DNA of 64,000 nucleotides from an uncultured Bacteroides sp. (GCA_949289295.1 CASENM010000040.1:3055-67054), one strand, 5' to 3'. Shown: positions 43,860 to 56,559, counted from the first letter of the stretch. A program made the numbers and translations. Notes: generated from the sequence alone by a model not told the origin.

Positions 43860-43979
43860 GGGTAATTTCAGAAAATTTCTTGAATCTGGATAGTGGCTGA
43901 AGTGAGATTTTTTGTATATTTCGATTTTCTGAGTTATGCATATGCTATGCTTTAATTCTTGATTAAAAATCGAAATATT

Positions 43980-44645
43980 ATGAGAATACATTTAAAAACG
44001 ACTTCTAATGAGTACGTAGTCCCCTTCAATTATCAGCCCAAATTAGTAGGTACTCTTCATAAATGGTTGGGGATAAATAATGAAGATCATGGGAATATCT
44101 CGTTATATTCTTTTTCATGGTTGCAGAAAGGAGAAATGGTAAGGACAGGCTTTAATTTTCCTGACGGTGCCTGTTGGTTTATAAGTTTCTATGATGAGGA
44201 CAAGATGAGGCAGGTAGTGAAACGGATCTTGGAGAATCCGGAAATTTTCTCCGGAATGGTTGTTTCTGATGTAGTTATAGAAGAAACTCCTGATTTGTCG
44301 GCCCGGAGACTATTTTATTTGGGGAGTCCGATATTCATCAAGCAATCTGACCCGGATACAGGAGTGCGGCAATACACTTTTGACGATAAAGAGGCGAATG
44401 GCCTGATGACCCAGACTTTACGTCATAAGATGAAAATGGCCGGATTGCCTTCTGACGAGACATTGAATGTATCTTTTGATTTGAGTTATACAAAGCGCAG
44501 GACCAAGTTTCTGATGTATAGAGGGGTAAGTAACCGGGCGAATATGTGTCCTGTGCTGATTGACGGGAAGCCGGAGACGAAAGCTTTTGCCTGGAATGTG
44601 GGCATCGGAAATTCTACAGGTATTGGATTTGGTTCAATTTATTGA
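43980..44645 (+). CDS. cas6: CRISPR endoribonuclease Cas6
   Basis: N-terminal VPFNYQ...LHKW, H...SLYSFS; C-terminal G-rich loop GIGNSTGIGFG. Confidence 0.93.
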   Translation: MRIHLKTTSNEYVVPFNYQPKLVGTLHKWLGINNEDHGNISLYSFSWLQKGEMVRTGFNFPDGACWFISFYDEDKMRQVVKRILENPEIFSGMVVSDVVIEETPDLSARRLFYLGSPIFIKQSDPDTGVRQYTFDDKEANGLMTQTLRHKMKMAGLPSDETLNVSFDLSYTKRRTKFLMYRGVSNRANMCPVLIDGKPETKAFAWNVGIGNSTGIGFGSIY

Positions 44646-45217
44646 TGGTTAATATGCTATACGTTGTAAAATATATTGGGAAGTTCGGTTTTATCAAACC
44701 ATGGACTGCCGTTCGTGACGGGAAAACCTATAGTCAGCAGTTTCTGACTCCTTCTGTGATTGAAGGAATCGAGAAAAAACTCTTTCCAGACATGCTGAAA
44801 TGTAATGGAGAAATAAAGAGAATAAAAAGATACAAGCTCCGTTATTCGGCTATAGACATGCAGCAGGAACAGATACACCCTCGCGGATGGACCTTCAATT
44901 CAAAATCGAAGACAATGTCACGTTTGCGGTCGGTTCTTTTAAGGGGAGTGATGCTGGATCCGGTGCTGTTGCTGGCATTTGACAATTTGTGTGATGCACA
45001 GACAGCAATGGCACAGCACATCTGTCTGTGCAGGAATGAGGACGTTTTATTGCCGGAAGAGGATGTGATTGTCATGAATGAACAGGAATTTCAAGAAGAA
45101 AAAGGTTTTGAACTTCGGTTTGGAAAGTCGGGAAATTCTTTTTTAGTCGGTTATAACCGTTTTAATGGCCAACCCATGTATGGCTGGTTGGAAATAGACG
45201 GCGTTTCAGTCTTATAG
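44645..45217 (+). CDS. cas5: Divergent Cas5-like RAMP
   Basis: N-terminal YIGKFGFIKPWTAV...TYS..FLTPSVIEGI resembles the Cas5 N-terminus; C-terminal CLCRNED at the G-loop position; located within the cas operon. Confidence 0.65.
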   Translation: MVNMLYVVKYIGKFGFIKPWTAVRDGKTYSQQFLTPSVIEGIEKKLFPDMLKCNGEIKRIKRYKLRYSAIDMQQEQIHPRGWTFNSKSKTMSRLRSVLLRGVMLDPVLLLAFDNLCDAQTAMAQHICLCRNEDVLLPEEDVIVMNEQEFQEEKGFELRFGKSGNSFLVGYNRFNGQPMYGWLEIDGVSVL

Positions 45218-45219
45218 TT

Positions 45220-47352
45220 ATGGATGATTATCGGAACATATTGGCCAAGCATGAGGACAGTGGCGGACTGCCATTGGTTACGCATCTGGAAAGTGTGGCG
45301 TGTGTTGCCGGACGGATAGCGGCCAAAAACGGAATGGATGTCCGTATTGCCCGCAGAGGGGCTGTCTTGCATGACATAGGCAAAGTGAGTCCTTTGTTCC
45401 AACAGACGTTGAAGCATGGATATGTGCGTATGCCTGGATTCATATTCCGTCATGAAATCGCTTCCTTGTTTTTCCTTTCTTTATTGGACGATTTGGAGAA
45501 AGATGTGGTTATCGATATGATTGCGGCTCATCATAAATCCATTTACGATGATGTGAGAAGTTTGGGACTGCTGGATTTGGATGGATATGAGGACAGTTTT
45601 GGAATCCATTCCGAACGATTTGAAGAATGGAGTCCGGTCGCGTTGGATATATTGGAACATTTTGACTTTCCGGTTCATCCTGTCGGTCTGGAAGAGGCAC
45701 GGTCGAATTATGAGTATGCGGTTTCGCATTGTGAAGGTCTGAAAGCTGGATATTCTTTATGGAAAGGATTGCTGATGGCTTCCGACCAGATGGCTTCCGC
45801 TTTGGAGACAGTTGACGGACAAATGGTGAAGAAGCTTTTTGTCTGTCCGGATTTGTCATTCTATGATCGGGAAAACAATCTTTATCCCTTGTCATTGACA
45901 AGTGTTGATGATTCAAGGGGACATACACTGGTGACAGCTCCTACAGGTGCCGGTAAAACAGATTTCCTGATGCGCCGTTGCAAGGGACGTGTATTTTATA
46001 CATTACCTTTTCAGGCCTCGATTAATGCGATGTATGATCGGTTTAAAGAAGATCTGAAAGACACGGATGCGCAAATTCATTTGTTGCATGCGGCTTCCAA
46101 TCTTAAAGTTCAGGACGGAAAAGTTGAAGAACGAATCATGCAGCGTCATGTGGGAGCTTCTATCAAGGTTCTTACACCGCATCAGATGGCTTCTATTGTT
46201 TTCGGAGTGAAGGGTTATGAAGCGATGATGCTTGATTTGAAAGGATGTGACGTGATTCTGGATGAGATACATACCTATTCCAGTACAATCCAGGCCATAG
46301 TACTTCGCATTATAGAGATCCTGAGAGTTATCGGATGCAGAATCCATGTCGGTACGGCAACCATGCCTCAGGTGCTTTATGACAAGATTTTGTCTTTGTT
46401 GGGAGGAGCCGAGAAAGTGTATGAGGTAAAACTGACTGATGATGTATTGCGTTCATTCAACCGCCATATTGTACATAAGTTGTCAAGTATGGATGATTCG
46501 TATCAGATACTTGGTTCGGATATAAATGACCGGAAGAAGATTTTAATTGTGTGCAATCAGGTCAGACGTGCGCAATCGGTTTATTTGTCTTTAAAAGAAC
46601 AATACCCGGATGTCCCGATGATGTTGATTCATAGTCATTACAGACGGATTGACAGACAAGGTTTGGAGGTAGACTTGAAAGAGGTTTACAATCAGCTTCA
46701 GGAAGCATGTATTGTGGTGTCTACGCAAGTGGTGGAAGTGAGTCTGGACATTAGCTTTGATGTGATGATTACCGAATGTGCTCCTATTGATGCTTTGATC
46801 CAGCGTTTCGGACGTATCAACAGAAAAAGGACTCTGGAAACGATAGGTAAAATGAAACCGGTATATGTCATTGCGCCTTATGCAGGAAAAGATGCTTTGC
46901 CTTACGATCCGGAAGTGCTTCAGAGAAGTTTTGACGTATTGCCGGATAATGGGATTATGGAAGAAACGGAAGTACAGTCGATGCTGAATAAAGTTTATCC
47001 GGATGAGAATTTTATGAATATCGACTATTCGGGGGCAATATTTGTGAACGGGAAGTGGATGATGAAAGAATTGAGACATAATTCAAAATCAGCTTTGTTG
47101 GAAACTCTTGACATCAATTCTGCCACATGTATCGTCCAGTCAGATGAGGAGCGGTATGTCAGGAATGAATCCGGAACACGGAGTGAACTGGAGATACCGG
47201 TAAGTTATCGTTCTGTCGCTTATTTGGGCTTGAGAATGAACAAACACGGGACTTGCCCTTATGTGATTCCTGATGAGGCTTACGATAGTGAGCTAGGGCT
47301 GTTGCCTGATAAATTGAGAGACGAATCAAATAAAACTTATGACTTCTTATAA
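45220..47352 (+). CDS. cas3: Cas3 HD nuclease-helicase
   Basis: HD domain (THL, LHDIGK, RHE, AHH, ASD) fused to an SF2 helicase (APTGAGKT, DEIH, TAT, STQVVEVSLDI, QRFGRINR). Confidence 0.96.
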   Translation: MDDYRNILAKHEDSGGLPLVTHLESVACVAGRIAAKNGMDVRIARRGAVLHDIGKVSPLFQQTLKHGYVRMPGFIFRHEIASLFFLSLLDDLEKDVVIDMIAAHHKSIYDDVRSLGLLDLDGYEDSFGIHSERFEEWSPVALDILEHFDFPVHPVGLEEARSNYEYAVSHCEGLKAGYSLWKGLLMASDQMASALETVDGQMVKKLFVCPDLSFYDRENNLYPLSLTSVDDSRGHTLVTAPTGAGKTDFLMRRCKGRVFYTLPFQASINAMYDRFKEDLKDTDAQIHLLHAASNLKVQDGKVEERIMQRHVGASIKVLTPHQMASIVFGVKGYEAMMLDLKGCDVILDEIHTYSSTIQAIVLRIIEILRVIGCRIHVGTATMPQVLYDKILSLLGGAEKVYEVKLTDDVLRSFNRHIVHKLSSMDDSYQILGSDINDRKKILIVCNQVRRAQSVYLSLKEQYPDVPMMLIHSHYRRIDRQGLEVDLKEVYNQLQEACIVVSTQVVEVSLDISFDVMITECAPIDALIQRFGRINRKRTLETIGKMKPVYVIAPYAGKDALPYDPEVLQRSFDVLPDNGIMEETEVQSMLNKVYPDENFMNIDYSGAIFVNGKWMMKELRHNSKSALLETLDINSATCIVQSDEERYVRNESGTRSELEIPVSYRSVAYLGLRMNKHGTCPYVIPDEAYDSELGLLPDKLRDESNKTYDFL

Positions 47353-47354
47353 TT

Positions 47355-48656
47355 ATGATAACATCAGTAATAGGTCGGATTTTCTTGGATGCGTACAATG
47401 AAAGGGAGCATACAGGTTATGATGCGAAAACCTTTTTCATTGAGAAATACTATCCGTTGTTTTTTGATGGTAATAAATATATGCAGTGGGTACAAAACTC
47501 CCCTTTTGTACAAATGAAAAGTGGACAAAAGGTTGAGACATTGTCATCGGATGAAAGACGCGAAAAACTGGAAGAACTGATTTGCAAGATTCAAAACGGT
47601 ACGAAAGATGCCAGTGTGGCTATCGGATATTCTGCCTCCGACGAAAAGGGATATGCTACAACATCGGGGCAGGTAACCAGTTTAGAAATCAAGGTGACCC
47701 ATGATGAAGTTTATCTGTCATGGATTGGAGCTTCTCTAGGTGTCGGCGTTAAAGGAGGACTCAGTATTTTGTTCAGTAATCCTTTGTTATTGCTGAGTAT
47801 ATATGATGGGTGGGCTTTCTATCGTGCTGCCTTAGATAACAATCAGAAACTGAAGGGGAATCAGATAGCATCATGGAATGGTCAATGGCTTGCGCACCGA
47901 TACGACAAGCGTGCGTTTGATGCGGAAAATCCGATGGCAGACTTCAACCCGTATGTCTCAGACAAGGATGCCTCAATGAGTGTGGCTGTGCAGTCGTGGA
48001 CAAAAATTCTGATTAATCTTTCACAGAACTTTTCAGGGCAGAACCTGTTGGGCTATGTTTATAGTCTGGGACAAACTAATATCACGGTTGGTTTTATCCC
48101 TTTTATACTTTTGCAGATAAGGCGTCCGATAGATTTGTATATACGTTTTTTCGGAATGAAAAATTGGAGACAGGCTGAAGAACTTTATGGTACAGCTTTC
48201 GGATTTGACAGGGCATGTCAAGCTGGGGCGATAGGCTTGAAGGCACTTGAACCAAAAGGACTGAAAGATTATATGGAAAAAGGGAAGTTACCTAAATATA
48301 CAGACAATGAAGAACAGACAATAAAATTTCATACTTATCAAACTTGGATTATGGCTATGTTGAACAACGAAGACTTATGGGTGCAATCGGAAAGTTTTGC
48401 ACATGTATTGAAAGAATATTCTGCCGGCAGCAAAAATGCCAAGACGGATAGAACCAATAAGGTGAAGGCTTTATTGGGAGCGCTGAATAAGAAAGAATTT
48501 ATCAGAAATTTAACTGAAATTATCTCAGAGGCTGGCGATGTCAGCAAACTTATGGAAACGGCAAAGCTAGTCAATGATATGCCAGCCGATAATGTTCCGT
48601 ATTTCCTGACATTGATCAGATTCCATTATGCCGCAATTATTAATCTTAACAAATAA
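47355..48656 (+). CDS. cas8: Putative Cas8 large subunit (divergent, 433 aa)
   Basis: Position between cas3 and cas7; the only candidate for the large subunit; helical C-terminal domain; family assignment by context. Confidence 0.65.
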   Translation: MITSVIGRIFLDAYNEREHTGYDAKTFFIEKYYPLFFDGNKYMQWVQNSPFVQMKSGQKVETLSSDERREKLEELICKIQNGTKDASVAIGYSASDEKGYATTSGQVTSLEIKVTHDEVYLSWIGASLGVGVKGGLSILFSNPLLLLSIYDGWAFYRAALDNNQKLKGNQIASWNGQWLAHRYDKRAFDAENPMADFNPYVSDKDASMSVAVQSWTKILINLSQNFSGQNLLGYVYSLGQTNITVGFIPFILLQIRRPIDLYIRFFGMKNWRQAEELYGTAFGFDRACQAGAIGLKALEPKGLKDYMEKGKLPKYTDNEEQTIKFHTYQTWIMAMLNNEDLWVQSESFAHVLKEYSAGSKNAKTDRTNKVKALLGALNKKEFIRNLTEIISEAGDVSKLMETAKLVNDMPADNVPYFLTLIRFHYAAIINLNK

Positions 48657-48661
48657 ATTCT

Positions 48662-49768
48662 ATGAATCCATTTATCTATTTGCGTGCGTTGAAACACGCT
48701 GAACATACTGTTTTCTGTGTAGAAGATGGTCAGAAAACTTATTATGATCCACAATTCAACAGGTACTCACCTTATTCCAGCGGGCAGCAGGTGAAACGTT
48801 CCATCTTACAGTCTGTAACTGACATCTTGAATGCTCCGATGGCACCAATTACATTTAATTATAGCATTACGAAAAACAACGAGTTGGAAAATAAAGAACC
48901 ATGGTCTCCTTGTGATCCGGCTTATGTGGATCAGTTGTTGGGCGGTTGGATGAGAGCAAAGACGGCTGCAGGTAAAACAAAAAATGATGGCGACAAGGAT
49001 AATTCTAAAGAAAATAATGTGATTAAACGCAGAAGCCCTCTGTCGATATCCGCAATGCGCCCAATTCATCCGTTGTTGGCTGGTGTGGACAGTGAGAATC
49101 TTACTTTTGACCGTAGTGACCGTCCGGACTATCATCCTGTAAATGTCAGGAGAGCCGGTAGCGATAAACTTTTGACGGAAGATGAGATAGAAGCTTTCTT
49201 GTCGGACAATGGGCGTACTCTTTCACGAAGGGTTTGGATTCCTGACAATAAAAGAGCTACGGGGCTTTTTGTTTATGACGTGGCCATTGATTTGCGTACG
49301 CTCTTCTGTGTCTCGACAAACCAGCATGAACCGGAAATCTCTAGAGATATGATTGATGAACTTAAATCCAAAGGATGGGTTGAAAGCGAGAATGTGTTTG
49401 GAAAATGCCTTGTATTGCCTGAGGCAGAGCGTAAGAAAGTAATCCCTGCATTGGCGGATGCGCTGATTGATTGGAGAATTACATCGAACCAGGCCCGTAC
49501 ATTTAGTTTGATGGAAACGTTGGCTATTGCAGTGAGTGACAATGCAAATGCTATAGCAGCAGCCATACGTGCGAAATTGATTGATGATAGCGAGAAGCCC
49601 AAGGCGAAACCTATTGTGGATGCAAATGCCGGAGCTGATTTGTTTGTGACTTTGCCATGTGCAAGTTATATTGTGACAGAATGTGAATCTCCGGATGCTA
49701 TTGAAAACGCGAAGCAGAATCTGATCAAGCGAATGTCGGATTTTGATTATGAGAATCAGAATTGTTGA
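48662..49768 (+). CDS. cas7: Cas7 backbone subunit
   Basis: PYSSGQQVKRSI, DQLLGGWM, RRSPLSISAMRP, GLFVYDVAIDL follow the Cas7 RRM pattern. Confidence 0.85.
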   Translation: MNPFIYLRALKHAEHTVFCVEDGQKTYYDPQFNRYSPYSSGQQVKRSILQSVTDILNAPMAPITFNYSITKNNELENKEPWSPCDPAYVDQLLGGWMRAKTAAGKTKNDGDKDNSKENNVIKRRSPLSISAMRPIHPLLAGVDSENLTFDRSDRPDYHPVNVRRAGSDKLLTEDEIEAFLSDNGRTLSRRVWIPDNKRATGLFVYDVAIDLRTLFCVSTNQHEPEISRDMIDELKSKGWVESENVFGKCLVLPEAERKKVIPALADALIDWRITSNQARTFSLMETLAIAVSDNANAIAAAIRAKLIDDSEKPKAKPIVDANAGADLFVTLPCASYIVTECESPDAIENAKQNLIKRMSDFDYENQNC

Positions 49769-49783
49769 TTGTTGGATTTAAAT

Positions 49784-49821
49784 AAGTCCTTCTGACCTTC
49801 TCTCTATGGAAAGAAGGACTT
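49784..49821 (+). terminator. Hairpin between cas7 and cas4
   Basis: AAGTCCTTCT / AGAAGGACTT perfect 10-bp IR followed by T-rich sequence. Confidence 0.45.
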
Positions 49822-49837
49822 GTCTTTCTAGTTTTAT

Positions 49838-50344
49838 ATGCTTACAGGAACTCATTTCAATTATTACCAAGTATGTAAACGTAAGCTTTGGTTGTTTGCC
49901 AATGGCATAAACATGGAGCACACTTCAGACTTGGTGCTTGAAGGCAGGCTTATTCATGAAGATTCCTATCCTCAACGCTCGGACAAATATGAGGAAATAG
50001 AACTGGACGGGATAAAGGTTGACTTTTATGATCCGAAGCGGAAGGTGATTCATGAAATCAAGAAATCGAACAAGGTGGAGGCGGCTCATGAATGGCAGCT
50101 GAAATATTACATCTATGTGTTTGAACGGAATGGGATAGAAGGTGTGACTGGGGTGCTGGAATACCCCACACTGCGGAAAACGCAAGAAGTGTTGTTGAGT
50201 GACGTGGATAGGGAGCGTATAAAGGAGATGGAGGCAGACATACAGCGGATTATTTCCGGTGACGATTGTCCGTCTTTACAGAAGAGAGGCATTTGCCGGA
50301 ATTGCAGTTATTTTGATTTTTGTTATAGCGGAGAGGAGGAGTAA
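49838..50344 (+). CDS. cas4: Cas4 exonuclease
   Basis: CKRKLW, RecB motifs VDFY..HEIKKS, QLKYY, C-terminal C...[10 protein letters not shown] Fe-S cluster. Confidence 0.96.
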
Positions 50345-51360
50345 TGAAAAAGACATTTTATTTGTTCAATCCCGGGATGCTGGAACGGAAGGATAATACC
50401 TTGAAGTTCACTCCGTGTGCAGATGACGGTGAACGGCCTGACGCGAATGCACAGTCGCGTTATTTGCCGGTAGAAGATATCAGCGAATTTTATGTGTTCG
50501 GTTCGTTGCGGGCAAACAGTGCCTTGTTCAACTTTCTGGGGCAGAAGGACATTGCCGTGCATTTCTTTGACTATTACGAAAACTATACAGGTTCGTTCAT
50601 GCCTCGCGACAGTCTGCTTTCTGGCAAGATGTTGCTGGCGCAGACTTCTCATTATCAGAATCAGAAAAAGCGTATGGCAATCGCCCGGAAGTTTATAGAA
50701 GGAGCCGCATACAATATGGTGAAGAATCTGCAGTATTACAACCGCCGGGGAAAAGACATGGAGGACATCATGGAACTGATGAACAAGCTGTCTGCCCAAA
50801 TACCTGATATGCAGACAACGGAAGAGCTTATGGGGATAGAAGGTCAGATCAGGCAGTATTATTATGAGGCGTTTGACTTGATAATCAATGATTTTGAGAT
50901 GGGCAACCGTACAAAACGGCCGCCTCAGAATGAGGTTAACGCCCTGATTTCGTTCGGCAATATGGTTTGCTATACGATTTGTCTGCGTGCCATTCATCAG
51001 ACTCAGTTGAATCCGACCATCAGCTATCTGCACAAACCGGGAGAACGCCGTTATTCGCTGGCGCTGGATATAGCGGAAATATTCAAGCCTATAATAGTGG
51101 ATAGGGTAATATTCAAAGTATTGAACAGGAAAGAGATTCAGGAAAAACATTTTGACAGAAAACTGAACAAATGTTTGCTGAATACAGCAGGAAAGAAGAT
51201 ATTTGTGAAAGCTATAGAGGACAGGCTGGGAGAGACCATCAAGCACCGCTCATTGCACCGTTCGGTGAGCTACCGCCATCTTGTAAAACTGGAGTGCTAT
51301 AAGCTGGCCAAGCATCTGCTGTCGATGGAAGAATATAAACCTTTTAAGATGTATTGGTGA
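50344..51360 (+). CDS. cas1: Cas1 integrase (I-B type)
   Basis: [43 protein letters not shown]. Confidence 0.97.
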
Positions 51361-51623
51361 TGTACGTGATTTTGGTTTATGATTTCGGTGAGAAGCGTGT
51401 CGGCAAGATGCTCAAGCTCTGCCGTAAGTATTTGAACTGGATACAGAATTCTGTCTTTGAGGGTGAGATTTCGGAAGCCCGTCTGAAAGAACTGTTGATG
51501 CAGAGTGACAAGTTTATGAACAAGAACGAGGACAGTATAATCATTTTCAGCGGTCCTTCCCAGTCGTCAATGGAGAAAAGGATTGTGGGTAAGGAACGTT
51601 CAACATTAGATATCTTTTTGTGA
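51360..51623 (+). CDS. cas2: Cas2
   Basis: [25 protein letters not shown]. Confidence 0.97.
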   Translation: MYVILVYDFGEKRVGKMLKLCRKYLNWIQNSVFEGEISEARLKELLMQSDKFMNKNEDSIIIFSGPSQSSMEKRIVGKERSTLDIFL

Positions 51624-51840
51624 ATGCAAACAGGTTGTCGGCCATACTATAGTTTCCCGTTTTACTAGGGGTTATTGTGGTTAGAGTTCTATGACTCGTT
51701 GTAACACAAATAGTTGGAGATATGTCGACTCTCAATATATTTTTTATCATTGAGGGTCGACATATTTCTCATTATTTTTTCGTACATTTGCATTCGCCAA
51801 ACCATTTAAAATCAGTGGAGATACTTTTTTAGAGTGGAGG
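51624..51840 (+). promoter_or_regulatory. CRISPR leader
   Basis: AT-rich, 217 bp; 17-bp IR ATATGTCGACTCTCAAT (51720-51736) / ATTGAGGGTCGACATAT (51749-51765); -7 element TACATTTG at 51783-51790. Confidence 0.85.
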
Positions 51841-54800
51841 CTTTTAATCGTACCATTTGGAATTGAAACTTTGGTTTCGTTTTGGTTTCCGTTTGGTTTC
51901 CGTTTCTTTTAATCGTACCATTTGGAATTGAAACACACTTCTCTTATGCGGTCGTCCGCCAGCTTGTGCAGCTTTTAATCGTACCATTTGGAATTGAAAC
52001 GTACTCATCCTTTGTTACGCCCGCAACCTCTTCGGGCTTTTAATCGTACCATTTGGAATTGAAACTTGCTATATCTGCAAGGGAGCGAATGCCAGCGCAA
52101 CTTTTAATCGTACCATTTGGAATTGAAACCGCATTTCGTTTGATTCGCTCAAAGGAACAGGTAACTTTTAATCGTACCATTTGGAATTGAAACGTCTGTA
52201 AAATAGAACTACTGACACTTTGATACACTTTTAATCGTACCATTTGGAATTGAAACCAATGATTAACAAGGGGACGGAAGAGATTAACAAACTTTTAATC
52301 GTACCATTTGGAATTGAAACGTCGTACGCACTTGATTGTTGTTATCTGGATGTCCTTCTTTTAATCGTACCATTTGGAATTGAAACATACTCTTTCTCGT
52401 TGGTTACTCTGTCGGCTGCGGCCTTTTAATCGTACCATTTGGAATTGAAACAAGCACCTGGCGGAACGCGGCCTCCATATTGGACGGACTTTTAATCGTA
52501 CCATTTGGAATTGAAACATGTATTCTCGGCGCTCAGGACGCTAAAGGAAGCCCCTTTTAATCGTACCATTTGGAATTGAAACGTTTGAGCTGGAACGATT
52601 TCCATTATTACAGCCACTTTTAATCGTACCATTTGGAATTGAAACACAGTTATTTCAAGATACTTGCGGACGGTTCCTTCGCTTTTAATCGTACCATTTG
52701 GAATTGAAACGCATTAAAATCATTTTTTTCATAATCTATTGTTTCTTTTAATCGTACCATTTGGAATTGAAACTTCTTCTGGAGCAAGGGAGTCAACGAC
52801 TACCTGAACCTTTTAATCGTACCATTTGGAATTGAAACAGGATAGGCAGCCAAGGGTGGACGTGCTGGACGGCTTTTAATCGTACCATTTGGAATTGAAA
52901 CGATTGCAAGTTCACTTAACTGCAATGCTCAGCAGGCTTTTAATCGTACCATTTGGAATTGAAACAATACTTCATTACTCATCTTTTCTATTCGAGAAAA
53001 AGACTTTTAATCGTACCATTTGGAATTGAAACAGATAACTTTGAATTTTTTAGGAGGCGGGCAAAGACTTTTAATCGTACCATTTGGAATTGAAACTGAT
53101 TTTCTTCATTTCTTCCTGCGGCGCATCCGTCTTTTAATCGTACCATTTGGAATTGAAACCGTCAAGCTTCTGATATACCGGGGTCACTGCCACTTTCTTT
53201 TAATCGTACCATTTGGAATTGAAACTAAGGTATACGTGGACGGATACGGATGGAAAGAACTTTTAATCGTACCATTTGGAATTGAAACTATTGTCTTTCC
53301 CCTTGTCGGGTGTCCGAACAGACTTTTAATCGTACCATTTGGAATTGAAACTACGCTTCAAGGTATTCCCTCATGCCCGATGGCAACCTTTTAATCGTAC
53401 CATTTGGAATTGAAACTTGTAACGGAACCATCGGCGTTAATAGTAATCAAATCACTTTTAATCGTACCATTTGGAATTGAAACATATATAAAGGACCTGC
53501 TGAACAAACGAAACGACACTTTTAATCGTACCATTTGGAATTGAAACTGGATACGCCTTGTGCTTGGGCGCTGCCGGTGCTCTTTTAATCGTACCATTTG
53601 GAATTGAAACTGGATACGCCTTGTGCTTGGGCGCTGCCGGTGCTGCATTTTAATCTTACAAAATGGAATTGAAACAACGAGGAAGGTGTAATTCCGGAGT
53701 ACGACATTCCTTTTAATCGTACCATTTGGAATTGAAACTGGATACGCCTTGTGCTTGGGCGCTGCCGGTGCTGCTTTTAATCGTACCATTTGGAATTGAA
53801 ACAGCAAGGCAGCAAGTTAACAGTAAGTACAAACAGCTTTTAATCGTACCATTTGGAATTGAAACTGCAGAAACGCCAATTTATGAAGGAGGGATGTCAT
53901 CTTTTAATCGTACCATTTGGAATTGAAACTGGAATGCGGCTTCAAAGTATCCGGTTACCACTTCTTCTTTTAATCGTACCATTTGGAATTGAAACAAGGG
54001 AAATGGCAAGGACACAAAACAACTACGAGCTTTTAATCGTACCATTTGGAATTGAAACGCCTTTCGACATTGTCCCGTGAAACCGGAACGGCTCTTTTAA
54101 TCGTACCATTTGGAATTGAAACACCGTCCGGGGCGAACTCTTTTTCCGCCTCCTCGCACTTTTAATCGTACCATTTGGAATTGAAACCAAGTTCCATTCT
54201 GTCACCGGCTTTGCGTGAGCGTGCTTTTAATCGTACCATTTGGAATTGAAACGATAGTGAGGAAGACAAGGGTAATGACCTACCTGCTTTTAATCGTACC
54301 ATTTGGAATTGAAACCAGTTAGCCCGTTATTGGGGTATCTAACCCCGACCTTTTAATCGTACCATTTGGAATTGAAACCGGCTATTGCGGCAATCGTAAT
54401 GTACTTGTTCATCTTTTAATCGTACCATTTGGAATTGAAACTAATTTCCTGATTGCCATTTGTCTTGATGACGTCCCTTTTAATCGTACCATTTGGAATT
54501 GAAACGAACAACCGTGAACATTTCCGAATACCACGCCTCCCTTTTAATCGTACCATTTGGAATTGAAACTGCGTAAGGCCCAGGTACAAGGCCAGGCAAT
54601 CCGGCTTTTAATCGTACCATTTGGAATTGAAACAACTGAAGAAAGAGGGGAATCAGGCTGCACACGGGCTTTTAATCGTACCATTTGGAATTGAAACCTC
54701 TTCCCCTGAGGACGTTGTATCAGCTTTCGTACCCTTTTAATCGTACCATTTGGAATTGAAACGTTCTTGAACTCTTGTTTTTTTAAGATTAATTCTCTTT

Positions 54801-56559
54801 TAATCGTACCATTTGGAATTGAAACGCGTATGAGTGATTACTATAAGAAGAAGTATGACCTTTTAATCGTACCATTTGGAATTGAAACTTACTCAGAAGA
54901 AACACCTGAGGCAGCAGGTGCAGGACTTTTAATCGTACCATTTGGAATTGAAACGCCTATAAAACGACTCGACATTACTGCGATCGCGAACTTTTAATCG
55001 TATCATTTGGAATTGAAACGGACATAGACCTGGATAAGCGGCCTTTTCCTTATCTTTTAATCGTACCATTTGGAATTGAAACGGGCTAGCTCTATCAGAT
55101 TGTATTCTTTCTCCAACTTTTAATCGTACCATTTGGAATTGAAACAATCAACGCCGTTGCGGATACCATATTTCCGATTTCTTTTAATCGTACCATTTGG
55201 AATTGAAACTTTCTCCGTATTCGTCACTGATTATACAGGTGACGGTCTTTTAATCGTACCATTTGGAATTGAAACTTGCTTCCGGAGAGTTCTCCTCCCC
55301 TTCCGTATCCTCTTTTAATCGTACCATTTGGAATTGAAACTCAGACTCATGCGGAGTATTACCTCGACATCCCAGCTTTTAATCGTACCATTTGGAATTG
55401 AAACACTTTAAATATTTCTATCGTTTTAATCCCTACCAATCTTTTAATCGTACCATTTGGAATTGAAACATTGTATTGCCTCGGCTTTGATGCTTTTCAG
55501 AGCCTTTTAATCGTACCATTTGGAATTGAAACCAGGACATAAGATGGGAGCCCGGCGTTGACATTGCTTTTAATCGTACCATTTGGAATTGAAACGGCGA
55601 TAAACGCCACGGTTACGGCGTTGGAACAGCACTTTTAATCGTACCATTTGGAATTGAAACGTCAATACAACGCCTACATTATCATCCTGCCCGGACCTTT
55701 TAATCGTACCATTTGGAATTGAAACCAATTAAATTATGGAATAAACGTTAATTATCAAAACTTTTAATCGTACCATTTGGAATTGAAACGATGGAGACGA
55801 TAGCGGAATTGCAGGGGACTGTAACTTTTAATCGTACCATTTGGAATTGAAACACAGTTCCCCGTATAAGAACGAGATGTTCAGGGATCTTTTAATCGTA
55901 CCATTTGGAATTGAAACTAGCCTCCTTGATCGCGTTGTCATTGCACTGCGGACTTTTAATCGTACCATTTGGAATTGAAACCACGTCACGGTAATAGATC
56001 CCCGTCTTTTCCGGCCTTTTAATCGTACCATTTGGAATTGAAACGAATGTGCTTCATCGCCTTCACGTAGAAGTCCTGCTTTTAATCGTACCATTTGGAA
56101 TTGAAACATATTCTTTCTCCCCTCTGTACTGGAATTGATGTACACTTTTAATCGTACCATTTGGAATTGAAACTCGGAAAGGAACGCACGCGGGCGCACG
56201 CATACGCGCCTTTTAATCGTACCATTTGGAATTGAAACTTACCTGCTCAGACCAGATCGGAACAGGCTGGAAGCTTTTAATCGTACCATTTGGAATTGAA
56301 ACGCAGGATAATTAGAAATGACTCTAAGGCTGTCATCTTTTAATCGTACCATTTGGAATTGAAACTGGCCAGAGCCGTCCTTCAGAAATTTCTCTATCGT
56401 TTCTTTTAATCGTACCATTTGGAATTGAAACCCAGCAGCTCGTTCTGCTTGCGTACGTCGGCAATCTTTTAATCGTACCATTTGGAATTGAAACTCGGAA
56501 ACAGACGGGTTACAGAATACGAGTTCGTGACTTTTAATCGTACCATTTGGAATTGAGGC
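51841..56559 (+). CRISPR. CRISPR array, 74 repeats / 73 spacers (34-38 nt)
   Basis: 29-nt repeat CTTTTAATCGTACCATTTGGAATTGAAAC, counted manually; variants R29 (53647-53675), R50 (54991-55019, one C>T) and terminal R74 ending GAGGC; the ATTGAAAC 3' end, leader position and degenerate end give + orientation. Confidence 0.99.

Follow-up and report, generated by a model that had tools for sequence, protein, structure and literature searches.

A five-substitution singleton repeat within an otherwise uniform type I-B CRISPR array of an uncultured Bacteroides species

Background

CRISPR arrays are in use as chronological records and as strain markers, and recombination within or between arrays was reportedly described by Kupczok et al. 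in 2015. Repeats themselves also vary: the patterns of repeat mutation surveyed to date concern one- or two-base changes, which were tracked if they persisted over at least two repeats (bioRxiv 10.1101/2022.05.19.492656). A self-targeting spacer can also be rendered non-effective by mutation of the repeat next to it, a route acknowledged in a review (PMC6990116) that cites Stern et al. 2010. Among type I-B systems, the related 30-nt repeats of Clostridium thermocellum yield an 8-nt AUUGAAAC 5' tag and are served by a dedicated Cas6, the Cas6 enzymes being repeat-specific (PMC3479195).

Here we describe a repeat that sits awkwardly among these precedents. It lies in a window of 64,000 nt (the whole stretch of DNA that was analysed) from a draft assembly of an uncultured Bacteroides sp., comprising 52 contigs and possibly representing a metagenome bin. 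An earlier note on the same DNA had singled the repeat out as foreign-looking and had judged recombination with a second or horizontally acquired array the easier explanation; the analysis below follows up that proposal.

The locus and its array

The window contains a type I-B CRISPR-Cas locus made up of a cas operon, a leader and an array, the features of which are collected in Table 1. Between cas6 and cas3 there is in addition a 191-aa gene without a family match. Three features fix the plus orientation of the array: its position downstream of cas2 and the leader, the ATTGAAAC ending of the repeats, and the 3' degeneracy of the final repeat. The newest spacer (51870-51905) is of low complexity and consists of approximately three copies of an 11-nt unit (TTTGGTTTCCG-like).

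Table 1. Features of the CRISPR-Cas locus, in coordinates of the window
Feature	Position	Strand	Basis or remark
cas6 endoribonuclease, predicted to cut the repeat 8 nt from its 3' end	43959..44645	+	TIGR01877, 80 bits against a cut-off of 58.65
cas3, HD nuclease and helicase	45220..47352	+	family match
Two genes between cas3 and cas4	47355-48656 and 48662-49768		weak or no family assignment
Adaptation module cas4-cas1-cas2	49838..51623	+	type I-B Cas1 model, 469 bits; Cas1 95% identical (aa) to that of G115 and G122
Leader, 217 nt, from cas2 to repeat 1	51624..51840	+	about 81% nt homology to the array leaders of G115 and G122
Type I-B array, 74 repeats of 29 nt and 73 spacers of 34-38 nt	51841..56559	+	repeat parsing; sub-threshold matches to Rfam CRISPR-DR2
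Spacer 27, 34-nt copy of re-acquired spacer A	53548..53581	+	array parsing
Spacer 28, 36-nt copy of spacer A, directly upstream of the variant	53611..53646	+	same as the other copies over the shared 34 nt
Repeat 29, variant (C1A, G10T, C14A, T16A, T17A)	53647..53675	+	8-nt 3' tag ATTGAAAC intact
Spacer 29 (spacer B), 34 nt	53676..53709	+	its crRNA 5' tag would come from the variant repeat
Spacer 30, 35-nt copy of spacer A	53739..53773	+	array parsing
Repeat 50, C13T (transition)	54991..55019	+	13-20 pair still formable as a U.G wobble, mini-hairpin pairable
Terminal repeat 74, degenerate 3' end, two changes (AAC to GGC)	56531..56559	+	degenerate trailer-end repeat

Compared with sister species of the genus, the locus (43959-51623) is a mosaic, with an adaptation part like that of G115 and G122 and an effector part unrelated to that of G115 (G115:C12). 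For cas4-cas1-cas2 and the leader the closest relatives are these two species (87-95% aa identity, Cas1 standing at 95%, and approximately 81% nt identity over 49844-51868). The effector genes of G115 are by contrast unrelated to those of the locus, its cas3 sharing 26% aa identity and no match being obtained for cas6, cas5, cas8 or cas7. A third species, G063, has a Cas6 that is 60% identical to that of the locus and a Cas1 that is only 84% identical. The mismatch between adaptation and effector parts relative to G115 points to old module shuffling rather than to a recent exchange.

A genuine and isolated aberrant repeat

Repeat 29 had been read in the earlier note as carrying five substitutions with its 3' handle intact, and comparison with the 29-nt consensus bears this reading out exactly. 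The 12 nt at its 3' end (positions 18-29) are the same as in the consensus and include the whole of the 8-nt tag (positions 22-29). The repeat lies in register between spacer 28 and spacer 29, the 63-67 nt period being kept, with type I-B cas genes upstream, and so belongs to the array. Its sequence has one exact match in the window, where zero would be expected by chance. The earlier description of the remaining internal repeats as identical except for one single-base variant also stands (71 repeats match the consensus and repeat 50 carries the single change), but the full census has one further exception, the terminal repeat 74, with two changes. Repeat 29 is therefore a genuine, isolated aberrant repeat in an otherwise uniform type I-B array.

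That its five changes arose together can be argued from three observations. Firstly, the other internal repeats contain 1 substitution in 2088 nt, which gives 0.014 expected changes per repeat and, over 73 repeats, a probability of about 3e-10 (Poisson) that any one of them would carry at least five. Secondly, spacer 28, immediately next to the variant, shows 0/34 changes relative to its two other copies, compared with 5/29 in the repeat (Fisher p = 0.017). Thirdly, all five changes are transversions; among the distinct single-base repeat variants found in 873 repeats from 13 arrays of the genus (this array and 12 sister arrays), 9 of 11 are transitions. Taken together, these odds, the uniform class of substitution and the unchanged adjoining spacer indicate one multi-base event. 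That one repeat should have been struck five times independently is not credible, and the changes look unlike those that ordinarily arise in situ.

The sister arrays contain nothing of the same kind. In none of the 12 (approximately 800 repeats) was there a mid-array repeat with at least four true substitutions, and those of their repeats that differ at several positions are indels, one deletion scar beside a truncated spacer, or decay at the trailer end. The scar belongs to G072, in which a truncated 19-nt spacer is followed by a repeat with its first three bases different. The array of G115 provides a case of internal loss: between its repeats 121 and 122, with normal spacers on either side, lies a repeat reduced to 26 nt because 3 nt of the central block are deleted.

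The variant within its repeat family

Related arrays occur in 13 of the 107 other species of the genus. The consensus repeats of the genus are invariant at positions 3-8, 10-13 and 20-28 and variable at ten positions (1, 2, 9, 14-19 and 29). Four of the five changes of the variant, at positions 1, 14, 16 and 17, fall on family-variable positions (hypergeometric p = 0.036, calculated post hoc), and the fifth falls on G10, which is invariant throughout the genus. The bases introduced tell a mixed story: two of the five are states known in the genus, A16 and A17 being those of the G115 and G122 repeats, and A1, T10 and A14 are found in no genus consensus repeat. The repeats of G115 and G122 are the closest natural repeats to the variant, with 3-4 differences in 29 positions; the consensus of its own array is further away, with 5. 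No spacers are shared between this array and those of G115 or G122.

Spacers on either side

The variant was said to lie inside a block in which one spacer occurs three times, and this is so: around it, spacers 27, 28 and 30 are all copies of spacer A. Duplicate spacers are frequent in the sister arrays, where the 5' end is fixed and the 3' end sometimes ragged (36/34 nt in G061; 34/36 nt in G011). The arrays of G122, G061, G072, G011 and G106 together contain seven duplicate pairs, the 3' ends being ragged in two of these, as well as several overlapping spacers. Such repeated capture suggests that the type I-B arrays of this genus undergo strong primed or hot-spot acquisition. The triplication of spacer A is, judging by these relatives, ordinary repeated capture of one protospacer. 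The triplicated spacer was accordingly rejected as a mark of recombination, since sister arrays often re-acquire a spacer in this way, its 5' end fixed and its 3' end ragged.

Nor does the variant travel in foreign company. Both flanking spacers are native, the upstream one being one of the three native copies of spacer A. The protospacer of spacer A was not found in IMG/VR, in metagenomes, in 40 genomes of the genus or in the organism's own genome, and in the INPHARED collection the sole match was a partial one of 30 nt, attributable to chance, in a Rhodococcus phage. Spacer 29 had no match in IMG/VR. Neither spacer 29 nor spacer 28 had a self-target in the draft assembly, from which plasmids or unassembled elements could be missing; their best ungapped alignments (24/34 and 24/36, respectively) are at chance level.

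The search for a source

Recombination with a second or horizontally acquired array was the explanation originally proposed, with a search for arrays having the variant as their consensus as its check. Part of the reasoning survives, in that clustered changes at the odds given above are not independent point mutations, but no such source array was found. No array using it as consensus repeat was found in the organism's own genome, in 185,579 species genomes, or in JGI metagenomes, IMG/VR and plasmids, and a foreign array with the variant as its consensus was consequently set aside as a candidate across the genome, metagenome, viral and plasmid collections.

Within its own genome the variant occurs once only. 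A periodicity scan found one other array there, with an unrelated 35-nt repeat, and its rejection as a donor follows from that difference. This second CRISPR locus lies outside the window, on contig C27 (approximately 74239-80073), and has 39 repeats of 35 nt, which recur with a period of about 69 nt and end in ATTAAGAC. The neighbouring open frame, of 759 aa, contains a Cas1 domain and may encode a fusion protein; similarly long Cas1 frames are present in G063 and G122.

Partial and tolerant searches were no more productive. An exact scan with positions 7-29 of the variant gave 0 matches in the 185,579 species genomes and the JGI metagenomes, and three degenerate patterns of the variant found no match in IMG/VR. 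Scanning with positions 2-20 returned 16 single matches in genomes and 4 in viral contigs, all outside arrays and with unrelated 3' continuations, as is typical of chance. A BLAST search with spacer 28, the variant and spacer 29 gave no match among plasmids. When mismatches were allowed, in 61 relatives and about 400 family genomes, only G115 and G122 came within three mismatches, neither of them exact.

A local template for the new sequence was also looked for. No template for the variant-specific block was present in the window or the genome, and local templated mutagenesis was rejected on those grounds. The changes do create a perfect CATTTT/AAAATG stem, of which 2/6 pairs were present beforehand; a quasi-palindrome template switch fails as an explanation because only these two had pre-existed. 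Inversion of the loop of a CCA-TT-TGG quasi-palindrome accounts for positions 16-17 only.

Predicted processing of the variant

The Cas6 of the locus is expected to cut between positions 21 and 22 of the repeat, one base past a putative two-pair hairpin (13-20 and 14-19). Every one of the ten genus consensus repeats can form the 14-19 pair, as C-G, U.G or U-A; the variant alone leaves it open, A14 standing opposite G19, so that the mini-hairpin is broken there. Covariation for this pair is weak, amounting to one compensatory change and not exceeding that in shuffles. Scored against the Rfam model CRISPR-DR2 (RF01315), which contains the hairpin, the consensus reaches 31.7 bits and the variant 20.9 bits, a fall of 11, although both lie below the gathering threshold of 37 bits and neither repeat can be assigned to DR2.

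With G10 changed and the 14-19 pair broken, weaker cleavage is predicted at this repeat, and we infer that the variant probably weakens Cas6 processing there. The further idea that a crRNA derived from the variant might be loaded by another complex has no support. In the event of failed cleavage, the chief loss would be the crRNA of spacer 29, for want of a 5' tag, and that of spacer 28 would keep a long 3' tail, a cost that would be nearly neutral in an array of 73 spacers.

Competing explanations

Several simple accounts can be put aside. A relic of an older repeat type was rejected, as consensus repeats lie on both the older and the newer side of the variant. Fusion of two arrays, leaving a terminal repeat stranded in the interior, was rejected given the intact 3' end, the normal spacing and the absence of a leader after the repeat. 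A degenerate terminal repeat in its own right was likewise rejected, the variant being repeat 29 of 74 with its 3' 12 nt intact.

The reading we prefer, tentatively, is that a short patch was copied into repeat 29 from an unsampled related repeat. Under this proposal the first 17 nt would have been replaced by a patch from a diverged repeat of the same repeat family, through gene conversion or short-patch recombination with an array in a co-resident strain, species or mobile element outside the collections searched; both the donor and the mechanism are what we infer from the single-event statistics and the family comparison. The patch would have left the 8-nt tag and the conserved outer blocks in place. 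The repeat would have been internal already, or would have become so later, and the change would never have passed to newer repeats, because those are duplicated from the leader-proximal repeat. Several observations count against copying from a related repeat. No donor is present in any collection searched, the spacers on both sides are native to the array, and three of the new base states (A1, T10 and A14) are unseen in the consensus repeats of the genus. At 8 nt and 12 nt, the identical flanks within the repeat would offer homologous recombination very little to work with, and the variant appears to resemble a damaged repeat more than a working foreign one because the conserved 14-19 pair is broken. 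A complex mutation in situ is nearly as likely, if itself doubtful: one error-prone repair or gap-filling event that altered several bases at once without a foreign template, possibly while spacer 28 or 29 was being integrated, a step at which the repeat would have been single-stranded and then refilled. Besides the missing donor, the look of damage (three of five new states unseen in the genus, a conserved pair broken) fits such an event, as does the start of the changes at the spacer-repeat junction, where the integrase acts. Parts of it can even be pictured. T16A and T17A could be an inversion of the TT loop of the CCA-TT-TGG quasi-palindrome, given that the central CCATTTGG and its reverse complement agree everywhere except at positions 16-17, where each T becomes exactly the A of the variant. 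As for A1, a 37-nt spacer could have been joined so as to reach one base into the repeat, its final base now standing at position 1; spacers of up to 38 nt are present in the array. No protospacer of spacer A was found in IMG/VR, INPHARED, metagenomes or 40 genus genomes to bear out the 37-nt spacer, however, and no prior quasi-palindrome was available to template positions 1, 10 and 14, only 2/6 of the CATTTT/AAAATG bases having been present and no other template lying nearby. Five misincorporations in 17 nt would moreover be far above any known polymerase error rate, and the roughly 800 sister-array repeats contain no comparable mid-array substitution cluster.

Three other possibilities each appear improbable. 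Two co-resident strains or species, each having caught the same hot protospacer on its own, might have exchanged material between their arrays, the shared 34-36 nt of spacer A acting as the homology anchor and a 36-nt copy of A with a foreign-type repeat replacing the native unit. Such an exchange would explain why the odd repeat directly follows the copy of spacer A of unique length, and why its first base is changed; we give it little weight. If true, convergently acquired spacers would be recombination bridges between otherwise incompatible CRISPR arrays. Selected silencing, in which the repeat before spacer 29 was mutated, or kept mutated, as spacer 29 or 28 hit host DNA or a useful mobile element, would follow the recognised association of mutated repeats with adjacent self-targeting spacers (PMC6990116). 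The variant is the very repeat that would supply the 5' tag of spacer 29, precisely the place for preventing that tag from being made, and the pair beside the cut site is broken. It is nonetheless an unlikely account: neither spacer has a target in the assembly above chance level (24/34 and 24/36), a single substitution would have been enough, which leaves five unexplained, and two further copies of spacer A are still flanked by normal repeats. An assembly or consensus artefact, with the triplicated spacer mis-threaded so as to join sequence of another strain, might be expected of a 52-contig genome with three near-identical spacer-repeat units within 230 nt and a variant seen once in all the data searched. 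This, too, we regard as having only a slim chance of being correct, as five clustered substitutions are not a sequencing-error pattern and the spacers on both sides belong to the array. The junctions between spacer A-GC and the variant, and between the variant and spacer 29, each require reads that contain them, so a unit of spacer A, variant and spacer B must exist in some sampled cell, even if it was misplaced.

Returning to the preferred reading of a patch copied from a related repeat, discovery of a donor would make the variant a clear-cut instance of arrays exchanging very short patches. Failing that, it is an isolated curiosity in one draft genome, an unexplained local scar of small wider significance. 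The variant is not evidence of a borrowed array. A five-base singleton means that repeats can change by single multi-base events, which point-mutation models of repeat evolution omit, and a repeat that cannot be processed silently drops a spacer from the working repertoire while that spacer is still counted in catalogues.

Comparison with known systems

Each of the precedents shares something with repeat 29 and departs from it elsewhere. Mutated repeats next to self-targeting spacers resemble it in that a damaged repeat would stop the neighbouring crRNA from maturing; here, in contrast, no self-target was found for either neighbouring spacer in this draft genome. Degenerate terminal repeats similarly carry several substitutions relative to the consensus, but such decay occurs at the trailer end of the array and erodes the 3' side of the repeat there (repeat 74 is one example, and the final repeats in G115 and G033 are others), whereas the variant lies mid-array with its 3' end intact. 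With the 30-nt type I-B repeats of Clostridium thermocellum and RF01315 the repeats of this array share the 8-nt AUUGAAAC tag, a similar length, a small hairpin before the cut and an operon-encoded Cas6; they differ in being 29 nt long and in scoring 31.7 bits against a threshold of 37, and the variant, at 20.9 bits, has in addition lost one of the two hairpin pairs.

Chimeric or recombinant arrays likewise contain foreign-looking sequence, and the repeat family of this genus has a history of old cas module shuffling, but recombinant arrays carry spacer-repeat blocks of their donor. Here the change is confined to 17 nt of one repeat between native flanking spacers, with no donor array found in the collections searched. 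There is likeness also to single-repeat polymorphism, including that of the type I-E arrays of E. coli and Salmonella, in which a non-consensus repeat similarly stands in a uniform array and, like the variant, lies away from the leader-proximal position, so that newer repeats do not inherit it. What sets this case apart is that the singleton has five changes, all transversions, which are not the sum of independent hits. Repeat 29, for which no donor was found, is thus an unusual member of known repeat variation: a five-base singleton.
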